A stretch of DNA of 64,000 nt from a virus (lineage: Duplodnaviria > Caudoviricetes), in the IMG/VR virus record IMGVR_UViG_3300010429_001696, positions 1-64,000 of that record. One strand, 5' to 3'. Positions 9,353 through 45,649 of the stretch are shown here, one piece after another (the first letter of the stretch is position 1; each line of letters opens with the position of its first letter). Position numbers and translations under genes: made by a program. Under the pieces are notes generated by a model. That model was not told the origin of the DNA, ran no database searches, and saw nothing but the letters and a program-made list of their open reading frames with translations.

Positions 9353-10102
9353 TTATTTCGAATCCAAAGGTCTTAAATTTGAAAAGTGATTCAATTTTAA
9401 AAGAATTTCTTCTGTCGTTGCGGTTTTCAATTCAATTATATGGTCTATATCCCATCCATATTTATAATCACCATTATATTTCCCATAATTTTCCCAATTC
9501 ATCCATGGCTCGAATTGTTTTTCTATGTGTTCTTTTAATGTCAAAAACGAGCAACCAATTATTTCTTCTATTTTATTCGTTTTTTTATATCTTCCTCTTC
9601 TTATGGATTTATTTATCATTGGGCAGATAATACATTTTAATCTGAACAAGCTGTCTGATTCTTTTCTATTTTTAGTATAGATCTTTCTTTTCTCGTTCAA
9701 TAATTCTCTGTTTTCAATATAATATTTCTTATTATATTCTTTTATTTTTTCTGAATTTTTGTTGCTTAATATTTTTTCCTTGTTGGTTTGATAATATTTC
9801 TTTTTTTGTTCATTTATAACATCTTTGTTCTCTTGTCTATATTTCATATTTTTCTCAAGAATATTTTCTCTGTTTTTTTGAAAATAAATTTTTTGAGAAT
9901 TCAATAGGGAGTCTTTGTTTTCAAGGTAATACTTTTTATTATATTCATTTTGTTTTTCTTTATTGTCTATTCTATACTTTTTTTTATAATTTTGTATTTT
10001 TTCGATATTTTTTTCTTGATATTTCTTATTGCGTTCTTTTATTTTCTCTTTATCTTTGAGATATCTTCTTCTTTCATATATTTTTGAAATTTCCTTATCC
10101 AA
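9353..10102 (-). CDS. HNH endonuclease-like protein with Lys/Glu/Tyr-rich helical repeats
   Basis: EKQFEPWMNWENYGK...WDIDHI...LNHFSNLRPL; N-terminal KKYYxENK repeats. Confidence 0.75.
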   Translation of the reverse strand: MDKEISKIYERRRYLKDKEKIKERNKKYQEKNIEKIQNYKKKYRIDNKEKQNEYNKKYYLENKDSLLNSQKIYFQKNRENILEKNMKYRQENKDVINEQKKKYYQTNKEKILSNKNSEKIKEYNKKYYIENRELLNEKRKIYTKNRKESDSLFRLKCIICPMINKSIRRGRYKKTNKIEEIIGCSFLTLKEHIEKQFEPWMNWENYGKYNGDYKYGWDIDHIIELKTATTEEILLKLNHFSNLRPLDSK

Positions 10103-11952: not shown

Positions 11953-12861
11953 CTAAAAATTTTTTAAAATGTTGCTAAATATATTTGAAATTTTTACATA
12001 ATATATTTCATTATATGAAGAATATTTATCATAATAAAAAATTTCTTTTATAGTTTTACTTGATATATCATCCAATTCTTTATATGATTTCTCTATATAC
12101 TCTTTATATTTTAATTTGAAAAATTTATTCCATTTATTATAATACTCAATCAAATCTTTTTTATCATGACATTCTTCACCATTAAAATATTGATTAAATA
12201 GTTTAGTAAAATTTAATAAATCGCTTATATCAGAAAATTGATCAATAAATTCGTTTGGGTCAAAATCTTTCAAAGATTCAAAAAATTTATATAAATATGA
12301 AGACTCAAATAATTTATACAATTCATCTTTACTACAATCACAATTTCTAAACTGAGCATATAACATTGTATATCTTGCTATTAACTCGTGTTCCAATGTC
12401 AAATAAACCAAATATAAAAATTTATCATATCTATTGTCAATATCTTTTTTTATTATAGAAACATATAAAGACTTCACAAAATCCAACATATCACTATCAT
12501 TCTCAATTGTGTAAATATCGTATATGTGTCTAATTTCGTGGGCGACAACAGATATCAGTTTATTCTTATCTATTTTTTTATCATATATTTCAATTGGTAT
12601 AATTATGTTTTCTCTGTTTCTATATAATAAATCATAGATGTTTACATTCGAATAATATACACTTTTTTCATCATCTTCGATAAAATTAATATGAACATTA
12701 GCAATATTATCTAGCAGCCCATATTTTCTCAAATCTAAATAAACGACACAAGATGAATCTACATTTTTCAAATCTTCCTCGATATAACTGATTATATTTT
12801 TAATATCCTCGGGAATATAAGATTTGAACTCGTTTAAAAAATTTTGATAATTATAAATCAT
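11953..12861 (-). CDS. Putative zincin metalloprotease-like protein
   Basis: VAHEIRH (HExxH) plus downstream EHELIAR; leader YQNFLNE. Confidence 0.55.
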   Translation of the reverse strand: MIYNYQNFLNEFKSYIPEDIKNIISYIEEDLKNVDSSCVVYLDLRKYGLLDNIANVHINFIEDDEKSVYYSNVNIYDLLYRNRENIIIPIEIYDKKIDKNKLISVVAHEIRHIYDIYTIENDSDMLDFVKSLYVSIIKKDIDNRYDKFLYLVYLTLEHELIARYTMLYAQFRNCDCSKDELYKLFESSYLYKFFESLKDFDPNEFIDQFSDISDLLNFTKLFNQYFNGEECHDKKDLIEYYNKWNKFFKLKYKEYIEKSYKELDDISSKTIKEIFYYDKYSSYNEIYYVKISNIFSNILKNF

Positions 12862-12901
12862 ATAAATATATATTCAATGAAATATCGTATGTTTTTGAAA
12901 G

Positions 12902-12973
12902 TTGAGATGAAAAGATTCGAACTTTTATCGGGTGATCCAAGAGTCACTAATGATGCCATTGCACCACATCTCA
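12902..12973 (-). tRNA. Atypical tRNA with 8-nt anticodon loop (CUCUUGGA; Lys-CUU or Gln-like)
   Basis: TGAGATG/CATCTCA acceptor, AAAAG-TTCGAAT-CTTTT T arm, GTGA/TCAC anticodon stem. Confidence 0.7.
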
Positions 12974-12976
12974 GAG

Positions 12977-13048
12977 TGGCGAGAGGGAATTTCGAAATCC
13001 CGGCCTAGCGAATATGAGTCGCTTGTTCTGCCTCTGAACTACCTCGCC
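12977..13048 (-). tRNA. tRNA-Met/Ile2 (CAT)
   Basis: GGCGAGG...AGCGA-CTCATAT-TCGCT...TCTCGCCA. Confidence 0.9.
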
Positions 13049-13160
13049 ATAATATTTTACAGAATACTTTTTTTGGACATATTTAAAAGACATGTTTTGG
13101 TTTTTTGTTGCTGTAAGTATTCTTTAGTTGTTTTGCTCATTAGATACCAGATTTTATTAG

Positions 13161-13233
13161 TTGCCCTGTCAGAGTATGATTCTGAATCTCAACATTCAAA
13201 GTGTTGCGTGATAGCCAATTTCACTACAAGGCA
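13161..13233 (-). tRNA. tRNA-Gln (TTG), non-canonical T loop ATCATAC
   Basis: TGCCTTG/CAGGGCA acceptor, CAACA-CTTTGAA-TGTTG. Confidence 0.85.
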
Positions 13234-13240
13234 GTATATC

Positions 13241-13492
13241 TTATATATTATATTTTTCGTATGTCTTCACCCATTTTTTAATCGCATTTCCACTAACGCC
13301 ATATTTTCTCCCAACACCACATAAACCAAATTCATCAATCTCATTTTTTAATTGCTCAAATGATGGTCTATCTACCTTTCTTCTAGATACAAAAGAATTC
13401 TTTATGTTGTTTTCTTTCTGTTTCAGTATAGACTTAAAATCATCTGGGATATACTTCTTAAATTCATTTAAAAAATCAAGATAATATTTCAT
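13241..13492 (-). CDS. Small protein: leader plus HTH like the C-terminus of phage HNH endonucleases
   Basis: MKYYLDFLNEFKKYIPDD; RRKVDRPS...GVGRKYGVSGNAIKKW. Confidence 0.65.
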   Translation of the reverse strand: MKYYLDFLNEFKKYIPDDFKSILKQKENNIKNSFVSRRKVDRPSFEQLKNEIDEFGLCGVGRKYGVSGNAIKKWVKTYEKYNI

Positions 13493-13559
13493 AAGGTTTT
13501 TAATTATATATTAAAAAATAATGATTTGGTTTAAATTTCAACATTTCAAAGAACTTTTG

Positions 13560-13645
13560 AGTCGACGGTCAGACTCGAACTGACATGCCTTTCGGTTTTT
13601 ACAATTTTGCAGATTGCTGGCTATTTCCAATTCACCCACGTCGAC
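13560..13645 (-). tRNA. tRNA-Cys (GCA) with enlarged variable region
   Basis: GTCGACG/CGTCGAC-T, GCAAT-CTGCAAA-ATTGT, variable AAAAACCGAAAGGCAT. Confidence 0.85.
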
Positions 13646-14526
13646 AAATTATTTAAATATTTTTGTTCATATTTTTTAATATCTTCTAAAAACCACACCT
13701 CAAAATCTAATCCTAATTTTTTTGCTGATTCCCATTTATTATAATCATCTTCTTTTATCCTGCCCTTTATCTCTAAATTTTTAATGCTATCATTGTTATT
13801 TATGATTCGAAAATCTATGATATAAGTGTGTTCATTTTTATCGATTCCAATATATTTTATTCTAACCTTACCATATTCCCAATCTTTGATCAAATTGATT
13901 TCTTTCATTTTATCTAAAATATAACAAGCTCTTAATTCATATGTTCCTTGAACTCTGATATCTTTATATTCTAACCATTTTGTTGTTCCACCAGCAACAT
14001 AATTCTTTCCAGTGTCGTAAGATTTTTTATTTACTTTGCTCCAATTTATATTAGAATTATGAACAGTTAACCATCCTCCTCTTTTTTTAGATGCACAACT
14101 AATACTGCAATATTTTTGATTTCTCTTAGCCCATTTTATTTCAAATTCTTTTTCACAATATTCACACTTTAATAATACTGTGTGACTATGGCATCCTTTA
14201 TCAGTCAAAGTTTTAGAAATTTTGTTTTTTGTTTCATCACTATGATTTCTGGAATTGGCGCATTTTCTTGAGCAGAATTTATTATATTTCCCTTTATCAA
14301 AATCGTTTTCAGTGATTCTAATATAGAAAATATTATTACATTTAGAACATTTTTGTTTTAATTCTATTCTTTTTGATTTTTCAACACCTTTAAATTTTTC
14401 TGAATTTTTTCTAATTCTCTCTTCTTTTTTGGGGTTTGAATCACAATTTGAAACATGTAAAGCATATAAACATTGTTTATCAACTTCTATTAATTTGTTA
14501 CACCATTTACAAATTTTACTATACAT
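13621..14526 (-). CDS. Zn-finger plus PD-(D/E)xK (TnsA-like) free-standing homing endonuclease
   Basis: Likely start MYSKICKWC at 14526; CxxC/FCSRKCANSR/YCSISCA motifs; QGTYELR..YIIDFRII..LEIKGR; 3' end overlaps tRNA-Cys. Confidence 0.75.
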   Translation of the reverse strand: MYSKICKWCNKLIEVDKQCLYALHVSNCDSNPKKEERIRKNSEKFKGVEKSKRIELKQKCSKCNNIFYIRITENDFDKGKYNKFCSRKCANSRNHSDETKNKISKTLTDKGCHSHTVLLKCEYCEKEFEIKWAKRNQKYCSISCASKKRGGWLTVHNSNINWSKVNKKSYDTGKNYVAGGTTKWLEYKDIRVQGTYELRACYILDKMKEINLIKDWEYGKVRIKYIGIDKNEHTYIIDFRIINNNDSIKNLEIKGRIKEDDYNKWESAKKLGLDFEVWFLEDIKKYEQKYLNNLSTWVNWK

Positions 14527-14605
14527 AATTATATATATAAAAATTTGCCGGTTCATAATAGAATCGAACTTAATATTTCCAATAATTTCAAAGAACTTAT
14601 CTAAG

Positions 14606-14908
14606 CGGTGCCGACCGGGCTCGAACCGGCGACTTCCTGCGTGCATTTTTTAAAACCTTTTTGTTTCCAAAAAGTTAGGACTATATCATCATCTCAGAGA
14701 GATGTTGGATGCTAATTTGGTATTATATTATATTGCTATAACCCCCAATAGTCTCTGCACCTTCCGTCTCTGACGGCTTGGCTCAGGATTACCATCTTTT
14801 TAAAAAAGTTAGGCTTCCCTGAATTCATCCAATTTTTCAATCATTATCGCTAATGAAAGCTGCCACTTCTGACAGGCAGGCATTCTAAACCAACTGAACT
14901 ACAGCACC
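14606..14908 (-). tRNA. tRNA-Asp (GTC) interrupted by group I intron
   Basis: 5' exon GGTGCTGTAGTTCAGTTGGTTTAGAATGCCTGCCTGT (14908-14872) plus 3' exon CACGCAGGAAGTCGCCGGTTCGAGCCCGGTCGGCACCG (14643-14606). Confidence 0.92.
14644..14871 (-). ncRNA. Group I intron (IC-like, ORF-less, 228 nt) at anticodon position 35/36
   Basis: Follows U, ends in G; core motifs AATTCAGGGAAGCC, GGTAATCCTGAGCCAAG, GTGCAGAGACTA, GATATAGTCC. Confidence 0.9.
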
Positions 14909-14978
14909 ATATTTTTTCAAAGCCAATAAATTAGCAAAGAAAATTAATTTTTTATCAATATTTCAATGAACTATTATG

Positions 14979-15063
14979 CGTCCCAGGAAGGATTCGAACC
15001 TACGTTGGATTTTCATCGTCGGGTTAACAGCCCGGACCGTTCGACCACTACGGCAACTGAGAC
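14979..15063 (-). tRNA. tRNA-Asn (GTT) with long variable arm
   Basis: GTCTCAG/CTGGGAC-G, CGGG-CTGTTAA-CCCG, variable arm GAT-GAAA-ATC. Confidence 0.85.
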
Positions 15064-15068
15064 TTTTG

Positions 15069-15155
15069 CGGTCCCTACGGGATTCGAACCCGTCTGAGAT
15101 ATTTCTATCAACCGATGTGACAGACCGGCAGCCACGCCTAGCAGCCCCAGAGACC
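15069..15155 (-). tRNA. tRNA-Asp (GTC) with long variable arm
   Basis: GGTCTCT/AGGGACC-G, CCGGT-CTGTCAC-ATCGG, variable arm GATA-GAAA-TATC. Confidence 0.85.
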
Positions 15156-15159
15156 AGAG

Positions 15160-15233
15160 TAGTCAAGGGCGGACTCGAACCGCCAGCCACGACTTTATCA
15201 GAGTCGCAATCTAACCAATTGATATACTTGACT
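15160..15233 (-). tRNA. tRNA-Ile (GAT)
   Basis: AGTCAAG/CTTGACT-A, CGACT-CTGATAA-AGTCG. Confidence 0.92.
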
Positions 15234-15263
15234 ATGCAATAATTTCAAAGAACTTAAAATTTG

Positions 15264-15333
15264 TGCCGCCGGAAGGATCTCGAACCTTCGCGCCGAGGTT
15301 TTACAGACCTGTCGCCTACCCTGGGTCGTCGGC
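15264..15333 (-). tRNA. Atypical tRNA-Tyr (GTA): short variable loop, weak D arm, 8-nt T loop
   Basis: GCCGACG/CGGCGGC-A, AGGT-CTGTAAA-ACCT, GAAGG-TTCGAGAT-CCTTC. Confidence 0.7.
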
Positions 15334-15350
15334 AATTCTAAAAAGATAAA

Positions 15351-15529
15351 AAAATTGTCTGCTCATTCCAAGTATGAAATAAAGTTTCTGGACATATCCT
15401 ATTAGGGACTTCACCAGAATGCAAGTCTACCTGACCTTTATCTTACTAAGCGAATTGACGTTTTCTTGGAAAAACTATGACAATCTTTCTGAAGGATTAT
15501 CATCGATTCACTTTTCACCAGACAATTTT
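15351..15529 (-). ncRNA. Unidentified multi-branched structured RNA (~180 nt)
   Basis: 11-bp closing stem AAAATTGTCTG/CAGACAATTTT; internal stems TGATAATC/GATTGTCA, GTTTT/AAAAC, TTCTGG/CCAGAA, AGATAAAG/CTTTATTT; no ORF; inside tRNA operon. Confidence 0.65.
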
Positions 15530-15532
15530 ATA

Positions 15533-15628
15533 AAAAATGTGTGTTCCAACATGAAACCGTAGGACTTTTTCCGTCTGATTACCGGAACCTGTGGGACACT
15601 GGGAATCGAACCCTCACCACACATTTTT
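15533..15628 (-). ncRNA. Unidentified structured RNA (~95 nt) with T-loop hairpin
   Basis: Closing stem AAAAATGTGTG/CACACATTTTT, GGG-TTCGATT-CCC, TTCCG/CGGAA. Confidence 0.6.
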
Positions 15629-15898
15629 AATCTCATTTTTTCAAAGAACTATTTTTTTATTATATTTTTTATATTTTTAACTTTTAACTTCAACCATCTT
15701 TTATTTCTAACAACCGTTCTATCTTTATCATTCAACTCCACTTTTTCGCCATCCCATATGCCAGTTAAATATATTTTTATGGATTTTCTACCATTTGAAT
15801 AATCATATTTAGAATCAACATATTCAACAAGATCCCCTTCCTCTATTTCATTATAATTTTTTTTATCATTGCTCCTTTCTTATTATATTTTTTAAAAC

Positions 15899-15932
15899 AA
15901 AAAAACCCAATCTTTTATTTCAGATTGGGTTT
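15899..15932 (-). terminator. Attenuator terminator of tRNA operon 1
   Basis: AAACCCAATCT-GAAATAAA-AGATTGGGTTT followed by TTTTGTTTT. Confidence 0.85.
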
Positions 15933-15960
15933 ATAAAAACTAAGCTATATGCAAAATGAT

Positions 15961-16023
15961 TCACCCAATCAGAATTTTCATTTGATCGTCATAAATATTC
16001 ATATAATTACACATAGTTTTCAT
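15961..16023 (-). CDS. Leader peptide 1, MKTMCNYMNIYDDQMKILIG
   Basis: 20-codon ORF whose end (GATTGGGTGA) is complementary to the terminator 5' arm; codons match downstream tRNAs. Confidence 0.8.
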   Translation of the reverse strand: MKTMCNYMNIYDDQMKILIG

Positions 16024-16030
16024 AATTGCT

Positions 16031-16120
16031 CGTTTATTATATATTGTATTAAAAAAGTCGTTTTTTTCCGTTTTTGTTTTAATTATACGACAAAATTACT
16101 AAAAAGTTTCAAAATAAAAA
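16031..16120 (-). promoter_or_regulatory. Promoter module 1 (TAATTTTG element plus AATATATA element)
   Basis: ~90 bp near-duplicate of 17789-17880; TAnnTTTG at 16091-16098. Confidence 0.7.
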
Positions 16121-16139
16121 ATATTTTTTAATTTTTTTT

Positions 16140-16418
16140 TTAAAAAACTCCGTTATCTTCGCCATATGTTGCATTCCAATAGATTATATCTTTTATATCT
16201 ATAATTACATCATCTAAAGTTTTTACTCTATAAGGCCTAGCTCTTTTTAATTCATCTGGTGTGAAAATTCTATGATTATACATTTTCATTGCTTTTTCAG
16301 CCTTATCATTTGTCTCCTCACAAAAATTTTCAGCTTCTTTTATGTCTGTAAAAATATGATAAAAGATTGTATCATCTGGTGTTATAACTACATAAATTTC
16401 ACTCGTTTCATATCTCAT
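16140..16418 (-). CDS. Hypothetical protein
   Basis: Open ORF in a minus-strand gene run. Confidence 0.6.
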   Translation of the reverse strand: MRYETSEIYVVITPDDTIFYHIFTDIKEAENFCEETNDKAEKAMKMYNHRIFTPDELKRARPYRVKTLDDVIIDIKDIIYWNATYGEDNGVF

Positions 16419-16511
16419 CGTTTTTTTTTATTTTTTTTATCTAGGGCTTTTGTGGTCTTTCTACGAAATCTTCACCGAAAGGATCATCCGTATTAAATGC
16501 TTCAAATTTTT

Positions 16512-17117
16512 TCATGTTAATTTATCATTTTCCTTATCAGATATTCTATTAACAAAATATGTATTGTCTTGTGGAAGTTTTTTTGAAACATTAAAAGAAT
16601 GAATTTCATTTTTATATTTCAATCTCAGATAATTCTCTCTGTTTTTATCAATCTGGATGCATTGAAATATCGTTATCACCATGGCCAACATAGATATAAT
16701 AAATCCATTAATAGAGCCCTGATCATTTATTCCTCTAAAGAAACATATAATATAAAATATGAATATGGCTGCTGTTAATATGATTGCTCCGGTTGTGAAA
16801 ATTCCAATTTCTTCATTTTTCTTATCCAAAAAAATATTAAATATAAAATTTATTCCTTTATCATAAAACTTTTTTATTTTATTTAAAATGTTGAATCTTT
16901 CTCCAATCTGTTCTATTTTATCAATATCTATTATATTATTGCTAAAATATTCTAATATCATTTTCTGATATTTTGGACTCAAACTACTAAAAACATTAAC
17001 TATCTTATTTCTTATACCATCATCATTTATATACTTGTTTATTAATTTCAAATCGAAATCGATGGTATTGTTCTCGGCTAAGAATTCATCATAATTTTTC
17101 ATTTTCCTATCTTTCAT
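16512..17117 (-). CDS. Hypothetical membrane protein with T4 CTS-like leader
   Basis: MKNYDEFLAE; two hydrophobic segments. Confidence 0.65.
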   Translation of the reverse strand: MKDRKMKNYDEFLAENNTIDFDLKLINKYINDDGIRNKIVNVFSSLSPKYQKMILEYFSNNIIDIDKIEQIGERFNILNKIKKFYDKGINFIFNIFLDKKNEEIGIFTTGAIILTAAIFIFYIICFFRGINDQGSINGFIISMLAMVITIFQCIQIDKNRENYLRLKYKNEIHSFNVSKKLPQDNTYFVNRISDKENDKLT

Positions 17118-17175
17118 TTTATTAATATTTCTTTTTATTTTATATATTAATAAAAAAAAACAGAAAAAATAATAA

Positions 17176-17376
17176 TTACCATCTTATAATTTTGAAGTTT
17201 GCTCCTTTACTTTTTACTATTTTACCTTCTTTTTCGAGTTCAGCAATAATGATATCAACCAGAACTTTATTCAATTCTGATATATCCCAGTAGTAAAAAG
17301 TATCTCCTCGCTTCGCTGATTTTAAAATCTCACGACGAAGAAATTTTAATATTTCTTGTTTTTGTTCTGGTAACAT
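17176..17376 (-). CDS. Hypothetical protein
   Basis: Start MLPEQK at 17376; the longer ORF call overlaps a tRNA. Confidence 0.6.
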   Translation of the reverse strand: MLPEQKQEILKFLRREILKSAKRGDTFYYWDISELNKVLVDIIIAELEKEGKIVKSKGANFKIIRW

Positions 17377-17396
17377 TTTTTTTTGTAAGTTTTTTG

Positions 17397-17476
17397 TTGT
17401 GGTGGAGGGATTTGAACCCTCATACACCAGATTACGCTTTTAATGCATGTTTATAAGACATGTGCGATACACCACA
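17397..17476 (-). tRNA. tRNA-Ile (TAT)-like, lacking a normal D arm
   Basis: TGTGGTG/CACCACA-A, 7-nt connector, CATGT-CTTATAA-ACATG, 24-nt extra region, GAGGG-TTCAAAT-CCCTC. Confidence 0.75.
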
Positions 17477-17482
17477 ATATTG

Positions 17483-17558
17483 TACTCCCGATGGGACTCG
17501 AACCCACAACTTCCGCCTTGAAAGGGCGGCGACTTTAAACCAGTTCGTCTACAGGAGC
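17483..17558 (-). tRNA. tRNA-Glu (TTC)
   Basis: GCTCCTG/CGGGAGT-A, CCGCC-CTTTCAA-GGCGG. Confidence 0.92.
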
Positions 17559-17566
17559 TTATGATT

Positions 17567-17640
17567 TGGTAGCCTGTTTGGAAATCGAATCCAAATTGTC
17601 GATGTGAGAAACCGATCTCCTGCCATTAGAGGAACAGGCC
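17567..17640 (-). tRNA. tRNA-Glu (CTC) with encoded CCA
   Basis: GGCCTGT/ACAGGCT-ACCA, TCGGT-TTCTCAC-ATCGA. Confidence 0.88.
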
Positions 17641-17676
17641 ATATATTTTTTTTTCAAAGAACAATCAAAACATAAC

Positions 17677-17703
17677 AAAAAACCCAATCTTTTTTGATTG
17701 GGT
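17677..17703 (-). terminator. Attenuator terminator of tRNA operon 2
   Basis: ACCCAATC-AAAAAA-GATTGGGT followed by TTTTTGTT. Confidence 0.85.
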
Positions 17704-17738
17704 CTCTTATATAAAAAAGCATATAAAAATATTCCCAA

Positions 17739-17789
17739 TCAAGTTGGCGAGTTTTCTATCTCTTCATATATGTTAAAATTTTTCATCAT
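17739..17789 (-). CDS. Leader peptide 2, MMKNFNIYEEIENSPT
   Basis: Contains ATA TAT GAA GAG ATA GAA; stop lies within TTGATTGGG, complementary to the terminator 5' arm. Confidence 0.8.
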   Translation of the reverse strand: MMKNFNIYEEIENSPT

Positions 17790-17880
17790 TTATTATATAT
17801 TGTATTTAAAAAGTCGTTTTTTTCCGTTTTTCGTTTCAATTATAGCACAAAATTACTAAAAAGTTTTAAATAAAAAAAAT
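17789..17880 (-). promoter_or_regulatory. Promoter module 2 (duplicate of module 1)
   Basis: TAnnTTTG at 17848-17855, then AAAACGGAAAAAAACGACTTTTT..AATACAATATATAATAAA. Confidence 0.7.
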
Positions 17881-17893
17881 TAAATTTATTATT

Positions 17894-18130
17894 TTATATT
17901 TTTACTAAATCTTTGTAGTTATAACAATATTTTAAACCAGATGGCAACCATATCACATCGAATTCATCTGGTTCATCGTTATATGGATTTCCAGCAACAA
18001 TTCCCTCACAATTCCCAAATTCATATCCATGACTAGCGCTTCCAAGTAAACCATCACCAGATAATTTTAATTTTTCTTTAAAATCATTTGACATTTTTAC
18101 CTTATCTCCTATTTTATAGTCGTTTTTCAT
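17894..18130 (-). CDS. Small SH3/KOW-like hypothetical protein
   Basis: YKIGDKVKM...GIV...DVIW; TAATTTTG upstream. Confidence 0.6.
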   Translation of the reverse strand: MKNDYKIGDKVKMSNDFKEKLKLSGDGLLGSASHGYEFGNCEGIVAGNPYNDEPDEFDVIWLPSGLKYCYNYKDLVKI

Positions 18131-18182
18131 AATGAAGCAAAATTATAAAAAAAGTTTGAAATAAAAAATTTTTTAAAAAAGT

Positions 18183-18350
18183 TCAAACTATTCTTTTCTT
18201 ATTGAATTTCATATTTACATCAGACGATTTTTCTTCGCCATCACTTACAGAAAAACCACCGACTTCCGTTTTTTTGTTTGGTTTTTGAATATCATGGAGT
18301 TTAGAAAATTCTTCGAATTTGAGTAAATTATCTAATTTTTTTTCAGCCAT
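18183..18350 (-). CDS. 55-aa protein with leader and KTEVG motif (absent from ORF track)
   Basis: MAEKKLDNLLKFEEFSKLHDIQKPNKKTEVGG; TTAATATATA upstream; resembles N-termini at 36911 and 37148. Confidence 0.65.
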   Translation of the reverse strand: MAEKKLDNLLKFEEFSKLHDIQKPNKKTEVGGFSVSDGEEKSSDVNMKFNKKRIV

Positions 18351-18404
18351 TTTAAATGAATTTTTTATTGTATATATTAAAAAATTTCATTCAAAAATAA
18401 TCAC

Positions 18405-18647
18405 TTAGATAATTTCCAGTTCTCTATTATCTATACGGCCTTCAACTGTAAAATATCCAGCATCTGGACCTTGTGGTACACTAAAAAATAAAGTTTCATC
18501 ATCATTTTGATGAATTTTTACTTTCTTGCTAAATTTACTCATCACTTTATCTTTGGCTTCTAAAAAGGTGTTTGCTTCAACTCCTTTTGTCCAGATGCCC
18601 ATAGTGACAGTCCCATTAAAAACTTGTTGAGTAACTATGTAAATCAT
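18405..18647 (-). CDS. Hypothetical protein
   Basis: Open ORF in operon. Confidence 0.6.
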   Translation of the reverse strand: MIYIVTQQVFNGTVTMGIWTKGVEANTFLEAKDKVMSKFSKKVKIHQNDDETLFFSVPQGPDAGYFTVEGRIDNRELEII

Positions 18648-18679
18648 AATATTTTAATATTTTTTTAACATTCTTTCTT

Positions 18680-19246
18680 TCATTTAAAAATATATATTCC
18701 TTTATTATTTAATAATCCATCACAATAACAACATCTTACTTTATAATCCTTAAAAACTATTCTTAAAAAATAATCATATAATTTATTTTTCCTATCATCT
18801 TGTGATAATCCAATAACATAAGAATAATTTTTAATTTTGTTATAATCTCTTACAATATAACCGATTTTGCCTAGTACTTCATATATCTCTTTTTTATTAG
18901 TTGGCTCTTCATACCTATCCACATCTCTATTTAATTCCGTGAATGAAATGTTATAAACAAATTCGTTGTTGATTTTATCACAATAGTTTTTCATTTTTAA
19001 AAGATCCAACCTATAATAATTATTAGAAGATGTTTGAAATCTTATGGTAATTATATCATTATCTAAATATATTACATCATAGTTCACGTCAGAATAATCC
19101 TTATCAAAAATTTCATTTAATTTTAAAAAAGGATTTTCGCCAATATATTTACTGGTATATATTTTAATATTTTTGTCTAATCTATTGTTATTGAATACTT
19201 TATAATATTCTTTAAAAGTTAGATAAGAAACATAAAGATATTTCAT
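18680..19246 (-). CDS. Hypothetical protein
   Basis: Open ORF in operon. Confidence 0.6.
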   Translation of the reverse strand: MKYLYVSYLTFKEYYKVFNNNRLDKNIKIYTSKYIGENPFLKLNEIFDKDYSDVNYDVIYLDNDIITIRFQTSSNNYYRLDLLKMKNYCDKINNEFVYNISFTELNRDVDRYEEPTNKKEIYEVLGKIGYIVRDYNKIKNYSYVIGLSQDDRKNKLYDYFLRIVFKDYKVRCCYCDGLLNNKGIYIFK

Positions 19247-41798: not shown

Positions 41799-43136
41799 AT
41801 GAAGAAATTCGGTAATTTTCTAAATGAGGATGCTGAGCCTAAGGAGCTTGTGAAAATGATATTTTCTGATGATTTCAAGAAAACATTAACGAATATACTT
41901 GAGGTAAGGCAAAGTAATATATCAAAAAGATTACTAGAACTTCCTAAATCGGACCAGAAGTTTGACATATCTTATGTTGATATTGATGAGGAAAAAGATT
42001 CTGTTACCTATTTGACTATCAATAGAATAGAAAGATTAAAAAAAGAAGGGGCACTGCCCGATGAGTACTGGAAAACAAAATTAAGAGACACAACAAAAAT
42101 AGGTAGATTTGTTAAAAAGATATTTGGTTCGAAATTTAATGAAAAAAGCGTCAATGCTTTCGCCGATAAATTCAAAACTATGTCTGGCTCAGACCAAAAT
42201 CTTCATAAATTTGAAATAGTTGATGGGGATGATTTGATTTATTGGTACAATAGAAATAATTATTCGGAGAAAATTGGTACTCTTGGGGCTGATGTAATGT
42301 CATACAATGCGTCGAGCATTTATTTGAATATGTATAGTAAAAATCCTAAAAAATGTAAGTTATTGATATTGAAAAGTGATACCAATGATAAAAGAATTAT
42401 AGGACGAGCTCTTTTATGGAAATTAACTACTCCAAGTGATAAAATCTTTATGGATAGAGTTTATTCCACAAAATCATCTCATGTTGATTTATTTATAAAT
42501 TATGCTAAAAGAGAGGGATGGTTATATAAAGGCGAGCAAGTATACGGAGATTCTCCTATCGTTAATGATGGAGTTGATAGAAACATTAAAATGCATGTTG
42601 AAATAGATAACACGGACTTTAAATATTATCCTTTCGTTGACACTTTGAGATATTATTATCCAAATCTAAAAATATTAGCCAATCACAAAGAATTAGATGA
42701 TATAATATATACCTTGAATGACGAGAATGGTAAATATCAAGAATATGAATGGGATAGTGAAAAGGGATTTAAAAAAGATCCAACTGTTTTCGATTCTAAT
42801 GCTTCTAAGGATATAAATTTTCGAGATGCTATGTGGTGCGAGGTTGACAATGCTTATTGTGGAAAAAGAGATGCGGTTTTTCTATCCTATAAAAATGTAT
42901 ATGCTTTACCGAAATCAGATAAAATAGTATATTCAGAGTATCAAAAAAGGTATTATTTAAAAGAAGATTGCGTTTGGTCTGAGCCATTAAAAAGTTGGAT
43001 ATGGAATAAATATGCTGTTGATGTTTATCACGATAAAGACAGAACAACCGATCCAGATAAAGTTCATCGTTTTGAAGTGAACAGATCTATTAAAAAGGTG
43101 GGCGATTATTGGTACGACATAGACTTAGATATCTAA
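41799..43136 (+). CDS. SCM/GRAL/MDRIY family, paralog 3 (Cys lost)
   Basis: GTLGADVM..IGRALLWK..MDRVY..PFVDT; leader MKKFGNFLNE. Confidence 0.75.
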   Translation: MKKFGNFLNEDAEPKELVKMIFSDDFKKTLTNILEVRQSNISKRLLELPKSDQKFDISYVDIDEEKDSVTYLTINRIERLKKEGALPDEYWKTKLRDTTKIGRFVKKIFGSKFNEKSVNAFADKFKTMSGSDQNLHKFEIVDGDDLIYWYNRNNYSEKIGTLGADVMSYNASSIYLNMYSKNPKKCKLLILKSDTNDKRIIGRALLWKLTTPSDKIFMDRVYSTKSSHVDLFINYAKREGWLYKGEQVYGDSPIVNDGVDRNIKMHVEIDNTDFKYYPFVDTLRYYYPNLKILANHKELDDIIYTLNDENGKYQEYEWDSEKGFKKDPTVFDSNASKDINFRDAMWCEVDNAYCGKRDAVFLSYKNVYALPKSDKIVYSEYQKRYYLKEDCVWSEPLKSWIWNKYAVDVYHDKDRTTDPDKVHRFEVNRSIKKVGDYWYDIDLDI

Positions 43137-45649
43137 GTTGTGAATCTATTTATTATATAACAAATATAACTTATTTCATCCTTGCTTATTTGATGATTGT
43201 TTGGTAAATATAGACCATATTTGTCGACCAGCACAGAATTTAACATATCTTTATTTTCACCATATAAATCTAGCCAAAATGGTTGTTTTGTTATAGCCCC
43301 ACAGATTAATGGCCTGGTTTCTATATCAGCTTCATTTAATGATTTGACAATTTCTTTGATACGAGGATGTATTATGGGGTAGGCAAAATTTGATATAAAA
43401 CAATTTTTTGGAGGAGATAATTTCCAATATTGATTTTCTATCAAATTGTCATATAATTTAAAATTTTCATTTCTTTTATTTATAATAAATTCTAGTTTAT
43501 CTATTTGTCTCAATCCTATAAAAGCCTGTAAATCAGTTGATCTCAAATTAAAGCCAGGATAATAAAAAGTATATAACGATTTGAAATCATCAACTGAATA
43601 TTTTTCTCTCATCTTCTGTTTGTATTCGCTGCTCCAATCTCTATCCCACCCATGAGATCTTATGGACATTAAAATGTTGTATAATTTCACATCGTCCGTT
43701 GAAACAAATCCACCTTCTATCGTGGAGTTGTGCAAACATATGGGTTGATTCCCACCGACAAAATTCTCTAAATTTTTTACACTAAAATCAAACACGTATT
43801 CATATTCTGGCGATATTTCTTCAATACTTCTAATTTTAATTGGAATGATATCACCGTTTTTGAATTTATCAAGATTCTCTTTTATTCCATATAGATTTAT
43901 TTTTTTATATGATTCATTGAAGATAATTTCACCATCATTATTGAATGTTATGTTGTTTAATACAAATTGATATTGTGGTTTGACATTAGATATTTTATTA
44001 CTATTTTTGAACTTCCTTTCTTTTTTGTTATTGATTGTTATTAACCCACCATTTAATCCTATGATATTACACAAATAAGATATGTCTGTTATCAACTTTT
44101 CGGAAACGCTTGTGACACTAATTCGATTTTTTCCTTTAATGGTGCCGTCGCCGGAGAAATATGCGTATAAAAAAGATATTATGCATTCATTGCTGCTATG
44201 AAATATAAATGATGGTATTCTTTTATTAGATGCCCCAGATTTTATATTAAAAAAATCTTTAAATACTATTTTTAATGTTTCGGACGAAACTTTAATATTG
44301 CAAGAGTTTGTATTTTCATTGAAATTTTTATATGAATTTAATCCAAAAATAGATTTTATAGAATTTGTGACATCATCAATATATTCTTTTTCCTTTATAT
44401 CAAATGAAAAATTTAATGAAGAATCACCATACGACCCCTCAGCTAAAAAATATCCAATTAAACGGCATAATTCTTTATTTATTTTATATTTAACTGGTAT
44501 ATATTTGTCCCTTGGTGTTCTTTTTTTTGCTATTTTTAAATCATTTTTATCGGTTTTTAAATATTCAATTGGTAAAATTTTTCTTTTTTTCCAGTTATAT
44601 TTTTGTTTATTTTCTTTACTATTCCATTTGAAATGAATATCATCTAAATCTTTTATATCATAATCGATCACAAAAAACTCATTTTTCATTTTTTTACAAA
44701 AATTCAAAAAATCTAATTCTTTTTTAACATGAGGCCTTTGTATTTTTGTCGGAACAAAAATATAATCATCCAGTTTTATATCACATCCTTTTACAATAGA
44801 AATATCAGATTTTTCTTTATCATATTTAAAAACACTGTGATCCTCTGTTAATTCGACAATTCTATTATTAAATAATTTTAATTGAAAAATTTTTTTATTA
44901 TCGATTTTATGTTTTAAAATGTGATCGGGACTCACATATATTGTCTTATAGTTTTCATCAAACGATAATATTTTTATTTTTGACACATCAGAGTTATATT
45001 TATTGTAAATTTCATCAATATTTTCTATATTAAAAATGTTATTCTCATCCAGATAAGGTATTGGAGTTTTTGGGGACACTGACATATGGTGCCCCATATA
45101 TAGACTAAAACTACTCATCGAGCCAAAACAACCAGTTTGAATGTTCTCATAAGTCGAGCCGATTGATTCGCAAGAATCTTCCAATAAAATAACATCATAC
45201 TTTAAACAAAGATCCATTATTTCTGTCATTTTATTAGGGGTGCCTAAAACATGAACTATGATCAGAGTGGCGGGTTTTTCTTTTTCAAATATTTTTTCAA
45301 GTGCTTCTATATTAATGCCCAATGTGTCCATTTCTATATCGCAAACTATTGGCTCATATCCAAGTTGTATGAAGGGAGATATAGTAGTCACCCAAGATAC
45401 ATCTGGAAAAACAATTTTTTTATTTTTTAAATATCCACTTTGTAGCAAAGCATATGCCATTGCTAGATTGGCGGATGAGCCAGAGTTTAAATAAACAGAA
45501 TATTTTCTTCCCAGAAAATTAGACCATTTCTTTTCTAATTCAATGGTTAATTCTCCCTTTGTTAATCTGGGATATGGATAAGTTTGTAACCAGATGACCA
45601 GTTCGTCTATATCTTTCTTGTCTATTGTGTCATTTACTAGTTTAATCAT
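43133..45649 (-). CDS. ColD-like PLP enzyme (DegT/DnrJ family; GDP-4-keto-6-deoxymannose 3-dehydratase-like) with intein
   Basis: NSGSSANL, LLEDSCES, SFSLYMGHHM^STIEGG, SHGWDR, GFNLRSTDLQA; 386-aa extein. Confidence 0.85.
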   Translation of the reverse strand: MIKLVNDTIDKKDIDELVIWLQTYPYPRLTKGELTIELEKKWSNFLGRKYSVYLNSGSSANLAMAYALLQSGYLKNKKIVFPDVSWVTTISPFIQLGYEPIVCDIEMDTLGINIEALEKIFEKEKPATLIIVHVLGTPNKMTEIMDLCLKYDVILLEDSCESIGSTYENIQTGCFGSMSSFSLYMGHHMSVSPKTPIPYLDENNIFNIENIDEIYNKYNSDVSKIKILSFDENYKTIYVSPDHILKHKIDNKKIFQLKLFNNRIVELTEDHSVFKYDKEKSDISIVKGCDIKLDDYIFVPTKIQRPHVKKELDFLNFCKKMKNEFFVIDYDIKDLDDIHFKWNSKENKQKYNWKKRKILPIEYLKTDKNDLKIAKKRTPRDKYIPVKYKINKELCRLIGYFLAEGSYGDSSLNFSFDIKEKEYIDDVTNSIKSIFGLNSYKNFNENTNSCNIKVSSETLKIVFKDFFNIKSGASNKRIPSFIFHSSNECIISFLYAYFSGDGTIKGKNRISVTSVSEKLITDISYLCNIIGLNGGLITINNKKERKFKNSNKISNVKPQYQFVLNNITFNNDGEIIFNESYKKINLYGIKENLDKFKNGDIIPIKIRSIEEISPEYEYVFDFSVKNLENFVGGNQPICLHNSTIEGGFVSTDDVKLYNILMSIRSHGWDRDWSSEYKQKMREKYSVDDFKSLYTFYYPGFNLRSTDLQAFIGLRQIDKLEFIINKRNENFKLYDNLIENQYWKLSPPKNCFISNFAYPIIHPRIKEIVKSLNEADIETRPLICGAITKQPFWLDLYGENKDMLNSVLVDKYGLYLPNNHQISKDEISYICYIINRFTT
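43727..45082 (-). mobile_element. Intein (452 aa) with LAGLIDADG homing endonuclease
   Basis: Begins SVSPKTPI; block B VELTEDHSVF; LIGYFLAEGS and FLYAYFSGDG; ends VFDFSV..NFVGG..CLHN followed by Ser. Confidence 0.92.

Follow-up and report, generated by a model that had tools for sequence, protein, structure and literature searches.

Short leader reading frames that share codons with downstream tRNA genes suggest ribosome-mediated attenuation of phage tRNA clusters

Known leader-peptide attenuators include trpL, hisL, leuL, thrL and pheL and the multivalent ilvL/ivbL of enterobacteria, and to our knowledge the output of every described one consists of amino-acid biosynthesis, transport or synthetase genes. 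The pheST attenuator of Escherichia coli, with its pheM leader, places phenylalanyl-tRNA synthetase under the control of tRNA-Phe charging. The tRNA genes of phage T4 are clustered and made as a processed precursor, and we know of no leader peptide or attenuator described for them. The presence of tRNA genes in phages is usually explained by codon-usage compensation, by the replacement of degraded host tRNAs or by escape from anticodon nucleases. Here we analyze the tRNA clusters of the IMG/VR phage record IMGVR_UViG_3300010429_001696 (G000), a single contig of 193,754 bp with 28.6% G+C, the first 64 kb of which are referred to as the window. Each cluster is preceded by a short leader open reading frame (ORF) and an intrinsic terminator, and we consider it highly probable from the features of the sequence that each tRNA block is an operon under three-strand ribosome-mediated transcription attenuation. 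This type of mechanism is known; what is new is its output of tRNAs, its use of leaders that cover several amino acids, its occurrence in a phage and the division of the tRNAs of a whole genome among such units. No description of tRNA genes under leader-peptide control was found in full-text literature searches, in agreement with the first-pass annotation of this DNA, which knew of no such attenuator with tRNA genes of a phage as its output.

The phage modules resemble the attenuators of biosynthesis operons in having a short ORF with regulatory codons, an intrinsic terminator and a mutually exclusive antiterminator with its upstream strand at the 3' end of the ORF. Several amino acids are combined in one leader, as in the ilv and thr leaders, and the third module of the record has Leu runs like those of leuL. 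In contrast to the biosynthesis operons, the phage units produce tRNA genes and not enzymes, and the sensed molecule is itself the product. Other differences are that the phage leaders list up to about 10 amino acids, that many parallel units, sorted by amino acid, are present per genome, that a separate 1:2 protector hairpin is usually missing, and that the carrier is a phage of Bacteroidota. The genes downstream of the phage modules (tRNAs, some small ORFs and homing endonucleases) differ from the known attenuator outputs, and this difference bears on the sub-kind and not on the mechanism. The pheST system is likewise a leader-peptide attenuator governing a component of the translation machinery, but it controls a synthetase, senses one amino acid, is cellular and has no downstream tRNA gene. 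T-boxes (RF00230) also place a terminator/antiterminator switch that depends on the state of a tRNA ahead of translation-related genes; however, they bind uncharged tRNA directly without a ribosome, and they have one specifier and a conserved T-box sequence. As in the T4 cluster, the tRNA genes of the phage are interspersed with small RNAs and mobile elements.

In the window, both minus-strand tRNA clusters are preceded by a promoter/5' untranslated region (UTR) repeat, a short ATG-initiated ORF and a terminator, and a strand able to pair with the 5' arm of the terminator is located at the 3' end of the ORF (modules 1 and 2, Table 1). The order given in the first-pass annotation, namely promoter repeat, leader, GATTGGG strand and a terminator with a CCCAATC arm, was confirmed on the minus strand, and GATTGGG of module 1 lies at positions 15970-15964, within the last codons and stop of leader 1. 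The two repeat copies share 76% identity over 90 nt. The annotation had taken the module to occur as a pair; both window copies are present as described, but the record holds three modules. The third copy, at about positions 153110-152866, has an identical layout and precedes four tRNA-Leu genes, in the order promoter/5'UTR, leader 3, strong terminator, GTTCTTTGAAA and tRNA-Leu genes. The promoter/5'UTR motif occurs exactly three times in the whole record, once upstream of each tRNA cluster, and a terminator scan over 5.5 kb detected terminators 1 and 2 as the only strong terminator-like sites on the minus strand. A sigma-70 promoter scan detected 39 sites where 30 are expected and is uninformative in DNA this rich in AT. 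The claim that a boxA-like motif stands between the terminator and the tRNAs holds for module 2, but in module 1 the GTTCTTTGAAA motif is located about 250 nt past the terminator, and the Ile-GAU gene is separated from the terminator by a small ORF with a broken frame, two stretches of structured non-tRNA sequence and a weak Tyr(GUA)-like tRNA.

The codons of each leader correspond to the tRNAs of its own cluster, with the counts that the annotation had reported. Leader 1 contains ATT three times and neither ATA nor Glu codons, and cluster 1 encodes Ile-GAU and no tRNA-Glu. Leader 2 contains ATA twice, GAA twice and GAG once, and cluster 2 consists of Ile-UAU, Glu-UUC and Glu-CUC. The commonest Ile codon of the record is ATA, yet leader 1, ahead of Ile-GAU, has ATT only; the Ile codons of leader 2, whose cluster has Ile-UAU, are all ATA. 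When the codon usage of the long ORFs of the record is taken as the background, 14 of the 19 codons of leader 1 are read by its own cluster, twelve of them consecutively (binomial P = 1.5e-4), and leader 3 has at least nine Leu in 29 codons (binomial P = 2.3e-4), with a further factor of 0.028 for the use of all six Leu codons.

The alternative pairings are also observed in all three modules of the record, where pairing between the leader region and the 5' arm of the terminator gave z-scores of -3.3, -3.3 and -3.9 against shuffles. The duplex has an energy of -10.1 kcal/mol in module 2 (z = -3.3) and -13.0 kcal/mol in module 1 (z = -3.9), and in module 3 a 14-nt strand inside the ORF pairs with the 5' arm. 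The first-pass annotation had named folding of the leader regions as a check, and in the folds, including those of module 3, the antiterminator is the minimum free energy (MFE) structure while the 3' arm is absent, and the terminator is the MFE structure once the 3' arm has been made. The MFE structure of positions 17750-17690 is the antiterminator helix (-16.1 kcal/mol, z = -4.6), and in that of positions 15978-15913 the antiterminator strand and the 5' arm are paired (-14.4 kcal/mol, z = -2.7). The terminators of the tested modules have stems of 11-15 bp with T-runs, and the full-length leader folds have z-scores of -4.3 to -4.6. In the full-length fold of leader 1 without a ribosome, a long-range helix replaces the antiterminator, which forms once the stretch that would lie under a stalled ribosome is omitted. 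Every prediction of the trp/his-type attenuation geometry that can be examined in the sequence agrees with the structure of these modules, suggesting that the annotation assigned the mechanism correctly.

Relatives were sought with the gp32-like protein of the phage (window 22337-23359), and 12 related IMG/VR contigs were found, one of which, L036 (48% gp32 identity), carries tRNAs. The other 11 contigs and three baseplate-related contigs have no tRNAs because they are fragments. In L036, a 33-codon ORF and then a 12-bp terminator stand ahead of clustered tRNA genes for Tyr, Ser, His and Leu, and codons 4-17 of the leader are exclusively Leu, Ser, His and Tyr. This leader embeds a 10-nt copy of the 3' arm of the terminator, whose sequence is unrelated to that of the arms in our record. 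Since the arms are unrelated while the embedded copy is kept, the three-strand layout is maintained by compensating change. The HNH endonuclease of L036 as a query found that contig alone, and when IMG/VR was searched for the shared promoter/UTR pattern, all matches were unrelated promoters of marine phages, without tRNAs. A tRNA T-loop with GTTCTTTGAAA after it was found at 119 IMG/VR loci. Modules were identified with a detector that is blind to codon content and requires a perfect hairpin with T5, a longest ATG ORF of 8-60 codons ending no more than 100 nt upstream and a tRNA no more than 800 nt downstream. It found 27 modules, 23 of which were retained after the removal of close homologues, and the layout occurs in L036 and in 20 further non-redundant modules of IMG/VR contigs. 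In one of them, seven consecutive Gln codons precede three tRNA-Gln genes; in another, the leader core contains Leu, Ser, Cys and Tyr only, and exactly those tRNAs follow. Local protein similarity between the record and the module-bearing IMG/VR loci was weak or absent, and those phages could not be placed.

The closest GenBank phages by gp32 are LR756501/3 (735 kb, 64%), LR756502, LR756504 and LR745206. They represent the four largest genomes described by Al-Shayeb et al. 2020; all are members of the Mahaphage clade, with Bacteroidetes as predicted hosts. Neither leaders nor attenuation are mentioned in the text of that study (PMC7162821). The four complete genomes (634-735 kb, W01-W04) contain 43-62 tRNAs each according to Rfam. 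The same detector found 24 modules in them, covering 153 of the 200 ARAGORN tRNAs of the cluster regions examined, and three more modules missed by the strict rules were recognized by eye; W04 alone has at least 8 parallel units. W01, the 735-kb genome, has orthologues of all three modules of our record with the same CCCAATCA/TGATTGGG arms. Its Glu/Ile(UAU) cluster also has Gln and Met tRNAs, and the leader of that cluster has Gln and Met codons. In our record the Gln and Met tRNAs belong to cluster 1, and leader 1 contains a Gln codon; in W01, Gln codons are absent from the orthologue of leader 1, and tRNA-Gln is absent from the cluster behind it. In both genomes Gln codons are confined to the leader with tRNA-Gln in its cluster, and the leader codons track the gene content of the cluster between the two genomes. 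Arm sequences are wholly different between phages, while the embedded copy of the 3' arm is retained. Across the 23 modules, the pairing of the terminator 5' arm with the leader region exceeded that of shuffles (mean z = -2.3, combined Z = -11), and the pairing strand mostly fell within the final third of the ORF or overlapped the stop codon.

A scheme of the control is suggested by this anatomy, its conservation, the co-variation of leaders and tRNAs and the alternative pairings. The shared promoter would start the transcript, and a ribosome would load on a leader whose middle uses the codons of the downstream tRNAs. Under fast decoding, the ribosome would advance to the strand located at the ORF 3' end, or beyond it, and the terminator would form, stopping the polymerase before the tRNAs. 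When charged cognate tRNA is scarce, slow decoding would stall the ribosome upstream, and the freed strand would pair with the 5' arm, allowing transcription of the tRNAs. The phage probably makes a tRNA set only when its codons are read slowly, and each tRNA product would feed back on its own synthesis per amino-acid group. The footprint of a stalled ribosome extends about 15 nt downstream of the P site. A ribosome at the last sensing codon of leaders 1, 2 and 3 would just clear the antiterminator strand, and a ribosome at the stop codon would cover the strand in modules 1 and 2, and in module 3 and L036 its place would be past the strand and ahead of the terminator. Translation of the leader, its coupling to transcription and the direction of the switch are what we infer from this arrangement, as is the natural trigger, for which anticodon nucleases, host shut-off or starvation are conjectural candidates. 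The leaders may also act as counter-defence sentinels, in which the depletion or cleavage of particular host tRNAs switches on the matching replacement block. We regard this as a tentative and rather doubtful extension of the scheme, and the causes could be anticodon nucleases, other tRNA-targeting defences or host shut-off by the phage itself.

Several points weigh against attenuation. Taken alone, leader 2 is weak, with 5 of 15 codons read by its own cluster (binomial P = 0.03), and the cluster behind leader 1 lacks cognate tRNAs for the Lys, Thr, Leu and Gly codons of that leader. In five of the 23 modules, the pairing does not exceed that of shuffles (z > -0.5). The ORFs of module 3 and L036 extend 14-30 nt beyond the antiterminator strand, so that a ribosome at the stop would leave the strand uncovered, and termination would have to depend on a ribosome between the strands or on kinetics. 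The scheme may also depend on close transcription-translation coupling in Bacteroidota, and amino-acid starvation would open the switch as well, though extra tRNA would then be of no help.

The weakness of leader 2 also fits an origin of the whole pattern by chance or artefact, in which spurious ORFs in AT-rich spacers, ordinary terminators or insulators of upstream genes and a compositional codon match would be mistaken for modules. The low G+C content makes Asn, Ile, Lys, Tyr, Glu and Asp codons common in any frame, and the detected modules L045, L050 and L154 resemble false positives. However, when the leaders of the 23 modules were shuffled among the clusters, which preserves composition, none of the 100,000 shuffles reached the observed match of 351 of 691 codons (213 +/- 16 in the shuffles, z = 8.4), and at the codon level with wobble there were 300 matches against 169 +/- 15 (z = 8.9). 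The co-variation of leader codons with anticodons that the first-pass annotation expected in related phages is observed in these comparisons, and the true pairing beats all controls. Exact permutations within one genome control for composition and codon usage, and the true pairing was the unique maximum in our record (6 permutations), W01 (6), W02 (5040), W03 (720) and W04 (40320). The match fraction was 0.47 in the ORF frame and about half of that in the other two frames of the same DNA (0.24 and 0.20), and by position it was 0.53-0.69 in the middle deciles of the leader and about 0.3 at the ends. Where Ile-GAU is the only Ile tRNA downstream, the leaders have 21 ATT/ATC and 5 ATA codons, against 7 and 13 where Ile-UAU is the only one (Fisher p = 0.0024 for Ile codon choice versus the downstream Ile anticodon). 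Codons that report on the regulated genes are enriched in the leaders, as in attenuators, and in our record the unit of promoter, UTR, ORF and terminator occurs only ahead of tRNA clusters. We consider chance hardly credible as the source of this pattern.

Two other forms of control would retain a role for the leader. In T-box-like sensing without translation, uncharged tRNAs would pair with leader triplets and stabilize the antiterminator; the output logic would be the same, with more of a translation component when charging is low, and the leader does have triplets complementary to the downstream anticodons. This seems very improbable, since the matched triplets lie in a single frame bounded by ATG and stop, the N-terminus shared by the leaders (Met, next mostly Lys, next Thr or Asn) is typical of translated leaders, 6-14 different consecutive specifiers fit no known tRNA-binding RNA, and the conserved UGGN bulge was not seen in the antiterminators. 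In addition, a cmscan search of positions 12000-19000 at E <= 1 reported only tRNAs and three chance-level matches, with neither the T-box (RF00230) nor any other Rfam family beyond these. Alternatively, translation might act as a shield against Rho or on RNA stability, so that stalling lowers tRNA synthesis, or the design might be an early-infection timer that is open by default. Since no clear protector strand is seen in modules 2 and 3, the three-strand design would indeed default to readthrough without translation, and long untranslated tRNA blocks need protection from Rho, which may explain the boxA-like motifs after the terminator. On the other hand, the classical signature of attenuation is a strong intrinsic terminator that excludes, and is excluded by, a helix anchored at the ORF 3' end, a pure shield or timer needs no listing of codons, and in W02-W04 the first tRNA lies 8-20 nt past the T-run with no boxA-like motif, making a shield or timer unlikely.

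Ribosome-mediated attenuation of the tRNA blocks, if correct, would have several implications. A sensor in each tRNA operon would reveal what the phage measures, that is, the decoding speed of the cognate codons, and the old question of why phages carry tRNAs would become testable. Leader-peptide attenuation would be extended to RNA genes with direct feedback, to phages, to Bacteroidota and to leaders naming up to ten amino acids, and the extension to Bacteroidota would imply working transcription-translation coupling there. In annotation, leader composition could predict the tRNA content of an unassembled cluster and mark operon boundaries in huge phage genomes, and the compact codon-specific units could serve as sensors of tRNA availability. 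If the leaders are also counter-defence sentinels, the approximately 45-60 tRNA genes of a megaphage, arranged in amino-acid 'regulons', would form a host-independent on-demand decoding system and give a direct, testable answer to the question of tRNA carriage.

Table 1. Positions of the modules, tRNA genes and associated elements (window numbering unless the record or a contig is named).
Feature	Position	Strand	Description
Promoter/5'UTR repeat, module 2	17806..17895	-	TAATTTTG box and conserved A-rich 5'UTR ending just ahead of leader ATG
Leader ORF 2	17739..17789	-	16 codons + TGA; codons 7-12 are ATA, TAT, GAA, GAG, ATA, GAA
Antiterminator strand 2	17734..17742	-	TTGATTGGG; overlaps leader 2 stop; pairs with CCCAATCAA in 5' arm of terminator 2
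Intrinsic terminator 2	17677..17706	-	11-bp stem, A6 loop, T6 tail; 5' arm contains CCCAATC
GTTCTTTGAAA (boxA-like)	17652..17662	-	Between terminator 2 and first tRNA
tRNA block 2	17397..17640	-	Glu(CUC) 17640-17567; Glu(UUC) 17558-17482; atypical Ile(UAU)-like 17476-17397
Promoter/5'UTR repeat, module 1	16049..16138	-	From repeat comparison and motif count
Leader ORF 1	15961..16023	-	20 codons + TGA; codons 4-15 all Met, Cys, Asn, Tyr, Ile(ATT), Asp or Gln
Antiterminator strand 1	15962..15972	-	CTGATTGGGTG; spans final three codons and stop of leader 1
Intrinsic terminator 1	15899..15932	-	11-bp stem, 8-nt loop, T7 tail; 5' arm contains CCCAATC
Small ORF region behind attenuator 1	15639..15872	-	Frames read by eye; ends at GTTCTTTGAAA (15649-15639)
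tRNA block 1	12901..15333	-	From ARAGORN and Rfam; members below
Tyr(GUA)-like tRNA, block 1	15333-15264	-	Weak Rfam match, 27.2 bits
Ile(GAU), block 1	15233-15159	-	
Asp(GUC), block 1	15155-15068	-	
Asn(GUU), block 1	15063-14978	-	
Asp(GUC), second copy, block 1	14908-14606	-	Split by group I-like intron
Cys(GCA), block 1	13645-13559	-	
Gln(UUG), block 1	13233-13160	-	
Met(CAU), block 1	13048-12976	-	
Odd tRNA, block 1	12973-12901	-	8-nt anticodon loop CTCTTGGA
Further GTTCTTTGAAA motifs, block 1	15253, 14971 (variant), 14596, 13554	-	
Leader ORF 3	Record 153018-152926	-	30 codons; nine Leu, all six Leu codons used
GGAAAAAAA...TTTTTT element	16058-16085, 17814-17842	-	Also record about 153045-153075 and L170 about 9625-9660

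Known boxA elements read GCTCTTTAACAA in E. coli and GTTCTTTGAAAA in Firmicute rrn leaders. The GTTCTTTGAAA motif resembles the boxA consensus and opens stretches of untranslated RNA genes; a boxA label is plausible from this likeness. The record contains 8 exact copies, all in sense orientation and 7 of them within tRNA clusters. At the corresponding place W01 has the variant GTTCTTTAACA, and no motif of this type is present there in W02-W04. An exact or one-mismatch motif after the terminator was found in 3 of 28 modules, and a two-mismatch motif in 3 more. The motif is a lineage-specific add-on and not a part of the general attenuator module. It possibly serves Nus-type antitermination (NusB-NusE) across the long untranslated blocks. 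A literature search for the motif returned unrelated primers only.

ARAGORN detected nine minus-strand tRNAs between positions 12901 and 17640, and Rfam added two: the one at 17476-17397 (39.7 bits), missed by ARAGORN, has the anticodon loop CTTATAA, giving UAU, and the loop of the one at 15333-15264, whose score lies below the Rfam threshold of 29, gives GUA. The record has no tRNAs outside the window other than four tRNA-Leu (GAG, CAA, UAG and UAA) at positions 152774-151548. ARAGORN assigns a four-base anticodon, CUUG, to the tRNA at 12901-12973, which might be Lys(CUU) or Pro(UGG), or might decode a quadruplet. The second Asp(GUC) gene contains an intron of about 230 nt after anticodon-loop position 37. 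In blastn searches this intron resembles phage group I introns, namely the psbA intron of S-CBWM1 and those of T4-like Klebsiella and Escherichia phages; at E <= 1 it was not detected by the Rfam model of group I introns. With the region as a blastn query, cultured phages were matched only in tRNAs and group I introns. Homing-endonuclease-like ORFs (NUMOD3, HNH-type) are located between the tRNA genes at 13621-14529, 13241-13492 and record positions 152090-152690, all on the minus strand, and endonuclease ORFs likewise lie among the tRNAs of L036. The tRNA blocks are apparent hot spots of mobile endonucleases.

At the head of block 1, positions 15351-15628 (minus strand) contain structured non-tRNA RNA, including a T-loop-like GGG-TTCGATT-CCC, which matches nothing in Rfam. 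Between this RNA and terminator 1, an 8-codon ATG ORF with an AGGAG box is present in the region 15649-15872 (minus strand), and its frame is broken at an A8 run, after which about 70 codons are open in the -1 frame without a start codon. The break could be a homopolymer error, transcriptional slippage or programmed frameshifting.

All 47 non-redundant modules (our record, L036 and L066-L191) start with ATG, as the detector requires. Their leaders have a generic N-terminus, consisting of Met, next mostly Lys, next Thr or Asn, and then an Ile/Leu/Asn-rich stretch up to position 7, which points to common descent or to fast unstructured initiation in a host without Shine-Dalgarno pairing. A functional peptide was considered and rejected: the orthologous leaders of W02 and W04 keep their composition but not their residue order. 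Upstream of the leader ATG, the 5'UTR carries a conserved hairpin-like element, GGAAAAAAA...TTTTTT, which is a clean 10-bp hairpin in the 735-kb genome and may function in pausing or stability.

In the 735-kb relative, a bL12 (L7/L12)-like gene, called by eye from its translation, lies between the attenuator orthologous to module 1 and the tRNAs (LR756501 about 188000-188700, minus strand; L167), where the leader would also gate this candidate ribosomal-protein homologue. The same genome has two CUA (amber-suppressor) tRNAs with their own promoter-like box and without a leader or terminator (LR756501 690585-690737, plus strand; L171 2086-2240); no suppressor tRNA is present in the 194-kb record. 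Elsewhere in the window, a DegT/DnrJ-type aminotransferase gene (43133-45649, minus strand) carries an intein with a LAGLIDADG endonuclease domain identified by Pfam.

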